Shown in pieces: positions 51,001 through 54,000 of a stretch of DNA of 64,000 bases. The position numbers are program-made. Numbering within the stretch: position 1 is the stretch's first letter; every line of letters starts with the position of its first letter. This DNA is from a virus (lineage: Duplodnaviria; Heunggongvirae; Uroviricota; Caudoviricetes), in the IMG/VR virus record IMGVR_UViG_646311923_000012; one strand, written 5' to 3'.

Positions 51001-54000
51001 TGCTCTGTCCGACTGAGCTAACAACGCATGATGCTGATAATGGACCGCCATCGGGGACTTGAACCCCGCGCAGCCAGCTTCGAAGGCTGGCGCTCTGTCC
51101 CGATGAGCTAATGGCGGTATGTGATATGGTGGCCCTTGCTGGATTTGAACCAGCGACCTGGCGATTATGAGTCGCTCGCTCTCACCACTGAGCTAAAGGG
51201 CCGAGCCAAAAAATAATAATCAGATGAAAATCAATAATCAAGCCCTTGCCTGGATACATATCTGTCTGGCGGGAAGCCATAATAGCGGTGAAATACAGAA
51301 ATAAAGTAGGACCTGCTTGAATAACCGCATTTTTCTGCTATAGCCTGTCCATATCCATGCCGGGAACATAACATATTTACAGCAACACGCATCCGCTCTT
51401 CCAGCAACAAGCGACTGAACATGCCCCCTTCATTTTTCAGTTTTGTCTTTAACAAACTCTCACTCATATGCAACTGTAGAGCAATCGCACCAAGCGTCCA
51501 GCTTGCTGATATATCTGTCTGAATTATCGCCCTGACTTTGGCACTTATGCTGGATAAACATCCACTTAAAAACAATGACATCCGTTCATCTGTTTCAAAC
51601 AGAGACAGGCAGGCCATCATAAGAAACATATCCGTGGCCTCTCCGGAAAATCCCTGGCTGGTAATTAAAGCCGCAGCCAACGCAGGATTGTTGGGTTCCA
51701 GCAACAGGTAAAGCGGAATGTCAGTCAGACGAGTCCTCGTCAGCTTATGCTGACTTTCCAGATATTGACTTACGACGGATTCGCTTATATCGACAATTTT
51801 AACTTTGCCATAATGCATAAGGAAAAGCTCCCTGATGCATTTGGTGGCCAGAACGACTGAGCCTGGCTTAAGTGACAACGTATCCTTTTCAAGAAAAATA
51901 TTAATTGGGGAGCAAACCATGATAACTGAACAGACAACAGCCATTATAATTTTACTTTCATTAGCAATTGGTTAGCTCAATTATAGCCCCAAAAGGTAAA
52001 TTATCATCAACACATAAGCAAAGGACTGACAGGTGTCGCCCCCCCACCAGCCGCCCATTCACCACAAATAAAAAGCCTTCAGGACTGAAGGCGTCTGTAA
52101 CAACCGCACTGATAGTCTGCCAGACCCGCCATAACAAGCTGGGTCAGTATTAACTGGCAGCGTTCGCGTGAAAGGTAAGTATTCTGCGCAACCTCCCCGA
52201 CTGTCGCCGGTTCGGTAACGCTTAATTCATTAAACACCACTCTGGCGGTTTCGGTCATATCCTGCTGTTTCAGCATGTCTTTTTCCCTTTTTCGGTTAAC
52301 GTGACACACCAATAACTCTTGTCGAAAAAGCCAGCAAGCTGAAAGAACGGTATTAATAACCACCAGCGAATTTATTGCGCTGCTGTATATTACGGACACA
52401 AAAAAACCACCTTCCGGTGGCTTCCTTGTGCGAAAAAACTTGCATTTCGCCTCGCGATACAGCTTTGCGAAGCTTACAGGAATTCAAGCTGTTTCTGCGT
52501 AAAAAAGCAAGCTTTTTTTATCGAAATGAATCGTGCATAGGTACATAAAGCATGTGTTCAGCCACGGCTAACCAACCTGCAATACGTTTCTCACATGTGC
52601 TGAAACACCATTCCGGGTGAGTACGATTTAAACATTCTGCCATTTTTCTCTTACTCATTCCCCGTCCTTCGTACCTTTGCCGGAGAATATTGATTAGCCC
52701 GGGATATTCCCCAAGCACCTCACTGATAACGCGATCAATAATCAACGCCTCTGTGTCTGTACAATGTGACAACCAGCTCTTCTGCTTCCCTCTGGTCATA
52801 TCCCGAAAAAATGCCTCAAGTTCCGGTTTTTCCAGCCCGGATTTCTTCATGCTGCGTAAAACCTCATTAACTGCTGTTTTCGTCAGCTTTTTCGAAACCA
52901 GTAACCGGTTAAACATATTTCCGGATTTACCCCCACCGATATACGACCACCGCCCCCACATCCGTAATTTCCCCTGGATCCAGACTGCTTCCAGCGTGTT
53001 CAGGCGTAAATGTTCGCCGCTTTTGCCTGTAATTTCCGGATATATCATATTTACGCTCACTCACTCTCAATTTTGTAAATCTTCACACCCAGCCGTCCAC
53101 CAGATACTGGCTGACCGCGCACAATATTGATTTCATCAAACTGCTCGTCATCAATGAGCACTTCCGCATGCGTCAGCGCATCCAGCGGTGCTTTCAGAAT
53201 GTTGTCCAGGTCACGGCGGCGCTTATCCGGTGGCTCTGCAATCACCTTTATCGCCAGCCTTCCGGACAGGCTTAATTTCAGCCGCTGCTGGCGAACAATA
53301 AGCGCCACAGCCCGGCGATAACGCTTTCCCTCCTCCGAGATAAAATATGTGCTGCCACGGCGTCGCCAGTAAGTGTTCACCGTCGGCGGGTAAGGTAAAA
53401 CCAAATCTATGAGCATCAGTCACCTCTTTTACCCAAGCACGCCAGTTGCAAAGGCGTGATCAAGAAAACGAAAAATTAAATCAACCTGAGAACCATGCTT
53501 TTCTTCGAACGCCAGCGGATCCGCATGAAGCTCGTTGTGATGCTCCCGACACAGCGGTAGCGTGAAAATATCGTGAGATTTTGTCCCCATTCCCCCCTGA
53601 CCATGACCAATCAGGTGATGCGGATCGTCAGCAGGCTTACCACAACACGCACACGGCTGTGTCTTCACCCAGTGCGTGTATTTCTCGTTAACCCAGCGGC
53701 GACGTTTAGGTCGTTTCATGAAAGATTCCGGAGACTCAGGATCAACGGCAATGCTGACCACCGTCTTTTCCTGTGGCGGTTTTTGCTGGTGAGCGTGAGG
53801 CAGCGGCGCAAGATTTTTTGTGCGCTGCTTCAGTATGCTGGTGGCGGTCTGCTCTCCCGGTACGATGTCGCTTTCACGGTACATTGAGCGGATTTTTTCC
53901 GCACGCAACCCCAGCGAACGACGTAATACCGCTTCCGGTAGCGCGTCCGCCACCTGATTGCGGACCGCCCACCAGGATAATTCAGCCAGAGATAATTCCC

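Follow-up and report, generated by a model that had tools for sequence, protein, structure and literature searches.

Which regulator is encoded between the late antiterminator gene and the tRNA genes of a lambdoid prophage, and what would it control in the host? The question is raised by a 64-kb stretch of viral DNA (IMG/VR record IMGVR_UViG_646311923_000012, 64,000 nucleotides; hereafter the window), in which the original prediction had placed an AraC/XylS-type gene of the PatE/Psr kind. The gene is very probably the psrB allele of a non-O157 enterohaemorrhagic E. coli (EHEC), an AraC/XylS "moron" located in the late part of a lambdoid prophage. As psrB, which encodes prophage-encoded secretion regulator B, has already been characterised in EHEC, it is not a new regulator.

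Gene content of the locus

An ORF scan recovered the predicted reading frame with its exact coordinates and length, on the minus strand (Table 1). The identical 237-residue protein, WP_000301785.1, is annotated in O26:H11 11368 and O45:H2 FWSEC0003 among the genomes examined, and other genomes, O103 strains among them, carry the gene at 100% identity; the ORF is therefore not a chance reading frame. With 44.0% GC compared with 51.2% for the window, the gene is only moderately AT-rich, which tempers the earlier description of its composition. Its placement between Q and a tRNA trio holds, except that an additional ORF of 65 residues intervenes on the Q side. The Q-like gene belongs to phrog_753 ("anti-termination protein Q-like"), and its Sakai counterpart, ECs_2193, is annotated as a phage antiterminator. 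The 65-residue product matches phrog_331 (E 8e-37) and, weakly and below the Pfam threshold, the TrmB winged-helix family (E 0.01). The trio begins 28 nt past the psrB stop codon on the same strand; its first member is called Met(CAT) by ARAGORN and tRNA-Ile (ileZ) by RefSeq. The idea that psrB stands out by its share of the rare codons which the neighbouring tRNAs read was rejected: ATA, AGA, AGG, CGA and CGG together account for 5.9% of its codons, about as many as in the Q-like gene (6.1%) and RusA (5.9%), though more than in TerB (0.7%) and NanS (1.6%).

Table 1. Features of the psrB prophage region, in window coordinates
Feature	Position	Strand	Basis
espK, type III effector gene	17103..18461	+	tblastn, 99.8% over 453 aa to annotated EspK
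Pch (PerC-family), LEE activator	44260..44574	-	tblastn, 100% identity to WP_001302717.1
Mobile cassette, ~1.5 kb (65-aa ORF, psr, three tRNAs)	50911..52408	-	local blastn
Nearest strong terminator 3' of psrB and the tRNAs	50919..50938	-	scan; 8-bp stem, 6 G-C pairs, T-run
tRNA trio ileZ (CAT), argN (TCG), argO (TCT)	50951..51202	-	ARAGORN (51127-51202, 51041-51117, 50951-51027), Rfam, RefSeq and Sakai annotation
psrB orthologue, AraC/XylS regulator (WP_000301785.1)	51231..51944	-	ATG-start ORF, 237 aa (ORF scan)
Predicted psrB sigma-70 promoter, ATGATA-16 nt-TATAAT	51980..52007	-	consensus scan, 10/12 matches
Terminator-like hairpin and T-run, in overlap with the 65-aa ORF stop codon	52075..52092	-	scan: GCCTTCAGTCCTGAAGGC TTTTTATTTG
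65-aa ORF (WP_000917770.1; Sakai ECs_2192), between Q-like gene and psrB	52079..52276	-	ORF and RefSeq
Strong intrinsic-terminator hairpin, tR'-like, directly 3' of the Q-like gene	~52398..52431 (from the fold, approximate to a few bases)	-	16-bp stem, then U7
Q-like late antiterminator, 180 aa	52518..53060	-	DUF1133 E 1.1e-110; Phage_antitermQ E 1.4e-8

The window is composite. The right 25 kb has its nearest matches in O45:H2 and O103 strains (99.8%), and the left 25 kb belongs to a second prophage, for which the best match is strain 7_12_30A. Collinearity of the whole window with O26:H11 11368, suggested by 1.65 kb at 100%, was rejected on the basis of Rfam matches to sok and DicF and of the 25-kb searches. 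Besides the regulator, the psrB prophage carries a Pch protein identical to one annotated in the psrB prophage of O157 strain F6667 (the Sakai gene at this position is pchB), and espK is located past its tail-fibre end.

Identity of the regulator

The original assignment to the AraC/XylS family is borne out. HTH_AraC matches the protein in two stretches (E 2.4e-13, 50.3 bits, Pfam cutoff 26.6) and HTH_18 matches residues 155-230 (39.8 bits, cutoff 33.6), so that both helix-turn-helix motifs are intact; residues 134-233 align with the solved DNA-binding domain of GadX (3MKL, E 7e-19). The protein thus has the C-terminal DNA-binding domain of about 100 residues with two helix-turn-helix motifs that defines the family. 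It matches phrog_1450 over its full length (E 1.5e-98) and aligns over its full length, including the N-terminal MxxVCSVI, with PsrA, the probable PatE, GadW, AppY and YdeO; in the last four the alignment takes in residues 1-130, where an N-terminal companion domain for dimerisation or effector binding would lie. Truncation, which had been named beforehand as grounds for abandoning the prediction, was not found: the length equals that of both O157 genes and the N-terminal motif is kept. A single-sequence AlphaFold2 model (mean pLDDT 38.9, pTM 0.32) was too low in confidence for a fold comparison.

The predicted kinship with PatE/Psr-type regulators was examined by alignment with the probable PatE, PsrA, PsrB and GadX and could be narrowed to a single member. 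ECs_2191 of O157:H7 Sakai is identical to the window protein in 234 of 237 residues (98.7%; 99.3% at the nucleotide level), closer than any paralogue compared, including PsrA (ecs1087, Sp4; 90.7%). Both lie in the same gene order, also found in O157 strain F6667: DUF968, RusA, the DUF1133 Q-like gene, the 65-residue ORF, the AraC gene and the ileZ/arg tRNAs, followed by TerB, DUF3927, a NanS-type esterase, the lysis genes and Pch. The three differences from the O157 protein are A103V, H196Y and I202V. Position 103 is variable among the aligned sequences; at position 196 the window protein shares H with PsrA; and at position 202 its I recurs in GadW and YdeO, whereas the V of the O157 protein recurs in PsrA, the probable PatE, AppY and GadX.

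ECs_2191 itself is identified as psrB (z2104) by elimination and synteny rather than from an alignment with the z2104 sequence. psrB is z2104, carried on OI-57 (PMC10877973; PMC8565820). ECs_2191 lies in Sp11, the same prophage as pchB and as nleG5-2, nleG6-2 and nleG2-3, which are z2151, z2150 and z2149 of OI-57 (PMC8565820); Sp11 is the Sakai counterpart of OI-57. O157 genomes have psr-type genes in only two places, Sakai Sp4 and Sp11, and the Sp4 gene, ecs1087, is psrA according to a 2026 paper (PMC13502914). Since there are two copies, one of which is psrA, and the other shares its prophage with the nleG genes of OI-57, the latter would be psrB. ECs_2191 and ecs1087 share 90.7% identity, in agreement with the published 90% for PsrA and PsrB (PMC10877973). 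A search for psrA in the potC-adjacent ("OI-50") prophage revealed no AraC gene in Sakai Sp6 or its counterpart in resequenced EDL933, and the Sakai Sp14 slot likewise contains none.

Instead of being PsrB, the protein might be orthologous to PatE, or a chromosomal regulator (GadX, GadW or YdeO) in a displaced copy: among the NCBIfam models YdeO matches it best, along its entire length (E 4e-31), with GadX second, and the MxxVCSVI motif is common to the PatE-like, Gad and YdeO proteins. However, the equivalog cutoffs of these models are missed by a wide margin (YdeO, NF007407, 108.5 versus 348 bits; GadX, NF007432, 87 versus 500). Set against the 98.7% identity to PsrB, that to the probable PatE (ECs_0287) is 37%, to GadW 35%, to YdeO 31% and to AppY 29% (full-length range for the last three, 28-35%), and that to GadX, 41%, covers the C-terminal domain only. 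These figures refute such an orthology, to which we assign practically no probability.

Comparison with PsrB and related regulators

The psrB locus of Sp11 in Sakai (z2104 of OI-57 in EDL933) has the same slot, gene order, 65-residue ORF and promoter block as the window. It differs in having lost argN, whereas the window keeps three tRNAs, and in the effector genes that the prophage carries at its end, nleG2-3/6-2/5-2 in Sp11 and espK in the window. PsrA (z1789; ecs1087) is of equal length and lies in the same cassette of small ORF, psr and ileZ-argN-argO, linked to a pch gene (pchA); the same pathway through GadE and YhiF has been reported for it (PMC13502914). It differs from the window protein by 22 substitutions, and its locus has a different Q gene, a CPBP/CAAX protease ahead and, in Sakai, a frameshifted small upstream ORF.

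PatE (z0321, OI-8), likewise of the AraC/XylS family and encoded on a prophage, activates gadE and hdeA (PMC10877973). In Sakai it probably corresponds to ECs_0287, at the end of Sp1, an assignment made by position only. The full-length alignment and N-terminal motif of this protein resemble those of the window protein, but its identity is low and its gene occupies the end of a degraded prophage instead of a Q-to-tRNA slot. Chromosomal GadW, GadX and YdeO, and AppY of the DLP12 prophage, are of the same family and domain architecture, and the pathways of all four lead to gadE, but they differ from the window gene in their low identity, their loci and their inputs, such as EvgAS in the case of YdeO.

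Transcription signals

The predicted sigma-70 promoter ends approximately 36 nt 5' of the psrB ATG. Shuffled sequences contain promoter-like matches at least as often as this region does, so that the promoter is to be read as a consensus match only, but the block is nearly invariant across the psrB, psrA and Stx2k-phage loci. Two terminators would separate the Q-like gene from psrB. The one directly behind the Q-like gene lies in a segment (52380-52520, minus strand) that folds with -49.7 kcal/mol (z = -5.2) and contains the hairpin ...GCCACCGGAAGGUGGUUUUUUUGUG; the stem of the other, at the end of the 65-residue ORF, is kept in each of the four loci aligned. In the gap between the end of psrB and ileZ the scan gave no convincing terminator.

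From these signals we infer a transcription unit in which psrB is most likely transcribed in the lysogen from its own conserved sigma-70 promoter. Because no terminator precedes ileZ, the three tRNAs may share a transcript with psrB. On induction, Q-modified polymerase would read through both upstream terminators into psrB.

A cassette shared among prophages

The 65-residue ORF, psr and the tRNAs form a mobile cassette. Sakai Sp4, strain 7_12_30A and phage phiSTEC1575-Stx2k carry it at 92-94% identity, each next to annotated Q-type and downstream genes other than those of the window; the flanks have no match in the Stx2k phage, and only short outlying segments match in Sp4 and 7_12_30A. The cassette is thus found behind different Q genes and once, in phiSTEC1575-Stx2k, directly upstream of stx2k. 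The 65-residue ORF is always ahead of psr, whether the copy is psrA, psrB or that of the Stx2k phage. Homology to SafA was considered, as a 65-residue safA precedes ydeO in K-12. Comparison by eye only revealed no evident similarity, and SafA has a hydrophobic stretch resembling a membrane segment that the phage ORF lacks.

Among 5426 complete E. coli genomes, psr-type genes occupy 1441 places in 829 genomes and the tRNA trio 7581 places, so that roughly one trio slot in five carries a psr-type gene. The slot had been described as normally devoid of regulators, which overstates the case, and its occupancy by psrA and psrB has been described for EHEC (PMC10877973, PMC8565820, PMC13502914). psrB at a nucleotide identity of at least 99% is found in 594 of these genomes, and its reading frame is perfectly conserved in the O157, O26, O103, O45, O111, O121 and O145 lineages.

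The functional unit could be the whole cassette, with the 65-residue winged-helix-like protein modulating Psr or with psr and the tRNAs acting as one transcript. We consider this improbable; the accessible literature contains no description of the cassette as a functional unit, of the small protein or of a coupling to stx. If it were true, its position upstream of stx in the Stx2k phage would couple the control of acid stress and secretion to the late transcription of a toxin phage.

Proposed function and alternatives

In O157, PsrB is reported to activate gadE, yhiF and hdeA, with increased acid resistance and decreased type III secretion (reviews PMC10877973, PMC8565820), and to bind directly to the gadE promoter and to hdeA from -132 to -45 (review PMC10877973). 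The DNA targets and the regulatory effect proposed for the window allele are those of the O157 orthologue. By this analogy, the C-terminal domain with its two helix-turn-helix motifs would bind AT-rich promoters in the acid-fitness island of the chromosome and raise GadE, YhiF/DctR and the AR2 acid-resistance genes; GadE would then repress ler and the LEE, and type III secretion would fall. The hdeA-hdeD-gadE regulatory region is present at an identity of at least 95% in 5414 of the 5426 genomes. Since the prophage holds Pch, an activator of the LEE, beside psrB, it would provide secretion with an accelerator as well as a brake, in addition to the effector gene espK.

How much this brake contributes in its native setting is a separate matter. 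In O157, deletion of psrB alone has little effect on secretion, the phenotypes being obtained by supply in trans or by induction (review PMC10877973), and PsrA is the copy whose single deletion gives the secretion phenotype (PMC10877973). The contribution of PsrB at native expression may therefore be small or redundant with PsrA. In a stronger version, psrB of the window would be a silent or redundant passenger, AT-rich and silenced by H-NS, with PsrA from the neighbouring tandem prophage and chromosomal GadX, GadW and YdeO covering its promoters. The deletion results and the 44% GC of the gene fit such a passenger, as does a psrA-identical gene in the adjacent prophage of strain 7_12_30A, the closest relative of the left part of the window, where it lies just beyond the span equivalent to the window. 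Nevertheless, the intact frame across EHEC lineages, the many nearly identical copies and the conserved promoter block argue for a gene in use, and in O157, induced PsrB increases both acid resistance and survival in mice (PMC10877973). On balance a silent or redundant psrB appears unlikely, though it retains a realistic chance.

It could also be argued that psr primarily serves the phage, through late functions, the tRNAs or stx, and that its effects on host acid resistance are incidental cross-talk. psr is always found with the tRNA trio, in one cassette between Q and the lysis genes and, in phiSTEC1575-Stx2k, directly 5' of stx2k, and a terminator between psrB and ileZ is missing. Yet about four in five trio slots manage without psr, and the accessible literature reports no psr-dependent phage phenotype. 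The closest full-length relatives among cellular proteins, GadW, YdeO and AppY, regulate acid resistance, as does the probable PatE (PMC10057817), and the direct binding reported for the O157 orthologue at gadE and hdeA (PMC10877973) likewise speaks for a host target. A primarily phage-serving role is thus very improbable, and control of host acid resistance and secretion remains the preferred reading of PsrB.

Significance

The importance of these findings is modest and they raise no new question; the loose ends are limited to the structure of the cassette and the 65-residue partner ORF. The secretion brake PsrB known from O157:H7 is essentially unchanged in the lineage of the window, nearest to O45:H2 and O103, and in O26, O111, O121 and O145 EHEC. 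This supports an extension of the GAD-LEE regulatory model of O157 to non-O157 EHEC.

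Identity of the regulator

The AraC-type regulator gene lies exactly where the original prediction had placed it (see table), with an ATG start and 237 codons, and Pfam supports the family assignment with matches above the gathering score to HTH_AraC (E 2.4e-13, in two stretches) and HTH_18 (residues 155-230). The AT-richness likewise holds, with 44.0% GC in the gene versus 51.2% in the window. Alignment to PatE, PsrA, PsrB and GadX had been proposed to establish the identity. Local tblastn and blastp comparisons with loci taken from O157:H7 Sakai revealed ECs_2191 of prophage Sp11 as the closest protein (98.7% amino acid identity, 234/237; 99.3% nucleotide identity), ahead of ECs_1087 of Sp4 (90.7%), ECs_0287 of Sp1, the probable PatE (37%), and GadW (35%), YdeO (31%) and AppY (29%), each over the full length. 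Identity to GadX (41%) is confined to the C-terminal domain.

ECs_2191 and ECs_1087 are 90.7% identical to each other, which agrees with the published 90% for PsrA versus PsrB (PMC10877973, PMC8565820). Only two psr-type places per O157 genome were found in the complete-genome search. The copy in Sp4, ecs1087, is psrA (PMC13502914), and the other shares Sp11 with nleG5-2, nleG6-2 and nleG2-3, which are z2151, z2150 and z2149 (PMC8565820) of OI-57, the island carrying psrB (z2104) (PMC10877973, PMC8565820). By elimination, therefore, ECs_2191 is psrB and the window regulator is its orthologue. The proposed PatE/Psr-type regulator is thus the already known psrB in a non-O157 allele and not a new gene. 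Reviews place psrA (z1789) on OI-50, yet the potC-adjacent prophage with nleL, espN and espK lacks an AraC gene both in Sakai (Sp6) and in resequenced EDL933, and a 2026 paper gives psrA as ecs1087 in Sp4. The discrepancy may be an artefact that goes back to how EDL933 was first assembled or numbered.

The regulator differs from O157 PsrB at three positions, A103V, H196Y and I202V (window residue first). Residues at position 103 are variable across the aligned sequences, the histidine at 196 is common to PsrA, and at 202 the isoleucine occurs in GadW and YdeO and the O157 valine in PsrA, probable PatE, AppY and GadX. Related proteins, including several characterised regulators, therefore differ at all three positions. 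Truncation, which would have spoken against a functional regulator, is absent, the ORF being as long as the complete frames of the two O157 genes. The original Sakai annotation starts both psr genes 42 codons later, but the long form is supported by an N-terminal MxxVCSVI motif common to the regulator, GadW, YdeO, AppY and probable PatE. Residues 134-233 match 3MKL, a solved structure of the GadX DNA-binding domain (E 7e-19), followed by weaker matches to Rns, CsvR and ToxT; a structure prediction from the single sequence was too poor to use (pLDDT 38.9).

Gene neighborhood

The gene order agrees completely with that of psrB prophages: DUF968, RusA, the DUF1133 Q-like gene, the 65-aa ORF, the AraC gene, tRNAs, TerB, DUF3927, the NanS-type esterase, holin and lysozyme, then Pch. 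The predicted site between Q and the tRNA trio is upheld, with the 65-aa ORF as an additional gene in this interval.

Features of the window and their coordinates
Feature	Position	Strand	Remarks
psrB regulator	51231-51944	minus	237 aa
Q-like antiterminator, DUF1133	52518-53060		180 aa; upstream of regulator
Conserved 65-aa ORF	52079-52276	minus	between Q-like gene and regulator
First tRNA (ileZ)	51127-51202	minus
Cassette	52408-50911
Hairpin with U7	~52431-52398	minus
Second hairpin with T-run	52092-52075	minus
Predicted sigma-70-like site	52007-51980	minus
Strong terminator	50938-50919	minus
Pch	44260-44574
espK	17103-18461
NanS-p-type sialate O-acetylesterase	47935-49872	minus	645 aa; DUF1737, SASA, DUF6645
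STnc100 sRNA	50009-50181	minus	Rfam, above gathering score
sok antitoxin RNA	2872-3046	minus	Rfam, above gathering score
DicF	11806-11857	plus	Rfam, above gathering score
ParD/ParE-type pair	54822-55447	plus
CPBP protease gene	1-329		window begins within it

The 65-aa ORF, annotated merely as hypothetical, belongs to phrog_331, with a weak, sub-threshold match to the TrmB winged helix. It precedes psr in every psrA, psrB and Stx2k-phage copy examined; the Sakai Sp4 version of the ORF has a frameshift that alters the C-terminus. A relationship to SafA was considered, as a 65-aa safA precedes ydeO in K-12, and was rejected because no similarity was evident by eye.

The three tRNAs, ileZ (CAT), argN (TCG) and argO (TCT) in the RefSeq and Sakai annotations, are on the strand of the regulator, and the first begins 28 nt past its stop codon. 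ARAGORN labels this first tRNA Met(CAT), RefSeq and Sakai tRNA-Ile; presumably it carries a CAU anticodon that reads AUA after lysidine modification. Enrichment of the regulator gene in the rare codons of these tRNAs was rejected, their share being similar to that in the Q-like gene and RusA, albeit above that in TerB and NanS.

STnc100 is encoded between the TerB/DUF3927 genes and the esterase. The esterase itself follows the tRNAs, TerB and DUF3927, an arrangement shared by many EHEC prophages. The nin region of the psrB prophage holds an insertion on the other strand, the ParD/ParE-type toxin-antitoxin pair. Further upstream, the annotation of the matching O26 and O45 loci shows toxin genes of the HigB type and the YdaT family.

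A mobile cassette

The 65-aa ORF, psr and the tRNAs form a cassette with 92-94% identity to its counterparts in Sakai Sp4, strain 7_12_30A and phage phiSTEC1575-Stx2k. In local blastn the similarity ends at both cassette borders, apart from short stretches farther out in Sp4 and 7_12_30A. It is flanked by a short Q-family antiterminator plus CPBP protease in Sp4 and 7_12_30A, by a 250-aa antiterminator in the Stx2k phage, and by the DUF1133 gene in the window and Sp11. In phiSTEC1575-Stx2k (OQ243220; locus L016, 5643-8324) the cassette lies directly upstream of stx2k A/B, which comes next past the tRNAs; its psr (92.6% nucleotide identity) is the sole psr match among 50,697 phage records. In RM10466 (locus L015, 7001-7726) a 59%-identical psr paralogue lies past the tRNAs, where stx lies in toxin phages, and about 100 complete genomes possess only this distant psr type (60-80% nucleotide identity band).

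The slot had been described as normally devoid of regulators. Since psr-type genes occupy 1441 places in 829 of the 5426 complete genomes and the tRNA trio 7581 places in 3061 genomes, about one in five trio slots holds psr. The slot is thus usually empty (about four in five), as in Sakai Sp6 and Sp14 and the EDL933 potC-adjacent prophage, but occupancy by psr is common and already described.

Origin of the window

Many O26, O103 and O45 genomes, O26:H11 11368 among them, match the 1.65 kb around the regulator at 100% identity, and 25 kb (39001-64000) are 99.8% identical to O45:H2 FWSEC0003 and related strains. The left 25 kb contain a second lambdoid prophage, best matched by bovine strain 7_12_30A, so that the window comprises two tandem prophages, each having its late genes on the minus strand. 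One of them, the psrB prophage, stretches from its tail-fibre end at about 22,600, with espK lying farther out, to past 64,000 and is collinear with locus L009 from 26,616 on. The early and nin region of the second, Sp4-like prophage occupies 1 to about 16,200, with sok adjoining hokD and DicF upstream of dicB. In 7_12_30A a 237-aa gene (locus L018, 6719-7432) equals Sakai PsrA at every aligned position shown and, with a second ileZ-argN-argO trio, lies just past the window's left end. As this strain is the closest relative of the left part, psrA and psrB probably lie in neighbouring tandem prophages of the source genome.

Expression signals

Directly 3' of the Q-like gene, a 16-bp hairpin followed by U7 (z = -5.2 in RNA folding of a 141-nt segment) looks like the tR' terminator downstream of a late promoter. 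Scanning located the second hairpin at the end of the 65-aa ORF and a predicted sigma-70-like site (ATGATA, 16 nt, TATAAT) some 36 nt before the psrB start codon that is almost invariant across psrB, psrA and Stx2k-phage loci. The psrB-ileZ interval yielded no convincing terminator, and the first strong one past psrB follows argO. These predicted signals suggest that in the lysogen psrB would be transcribed from its own promoter, possibly together with the tRNAs, and that after induction Q-modified polymerase would also read through psrB. Loose ends are limited to the 65-aa partner ORF, a possible joint transcript of psrB and the tRNAs, and the placement of the cassette immediately before stx2k.

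Implications for regulation

PsrA and PsrB are AraC/XylS regulators that occur only in prophages, with effector loci and Pch regulators, and raise GadE and YhiF, by which type III secretion is repressed (PMC10877973, PMC8565820). O157 PsrB has binding sites at the gadE promoter and at hdeA (-132 to -45), and it enhances resistance to acid as well as survival of mouse-stomach passage; deletion of psrB alone changes secretion little (PMC10877973, PMC8565820). Both psrA and gadE are responsive to HnrS, a prophage sRNA (PMC13502914). The hdeA-hdeD-gadE target region is present in 5414 of the 5426 complete E. coli genomes. Pch of the window prophage has the same accession as in the O157 psrB prophage of F6667, and the presence of Pch and espK on the window prophage agrees with the published linkage of psr to Pch regulators and effector loci.
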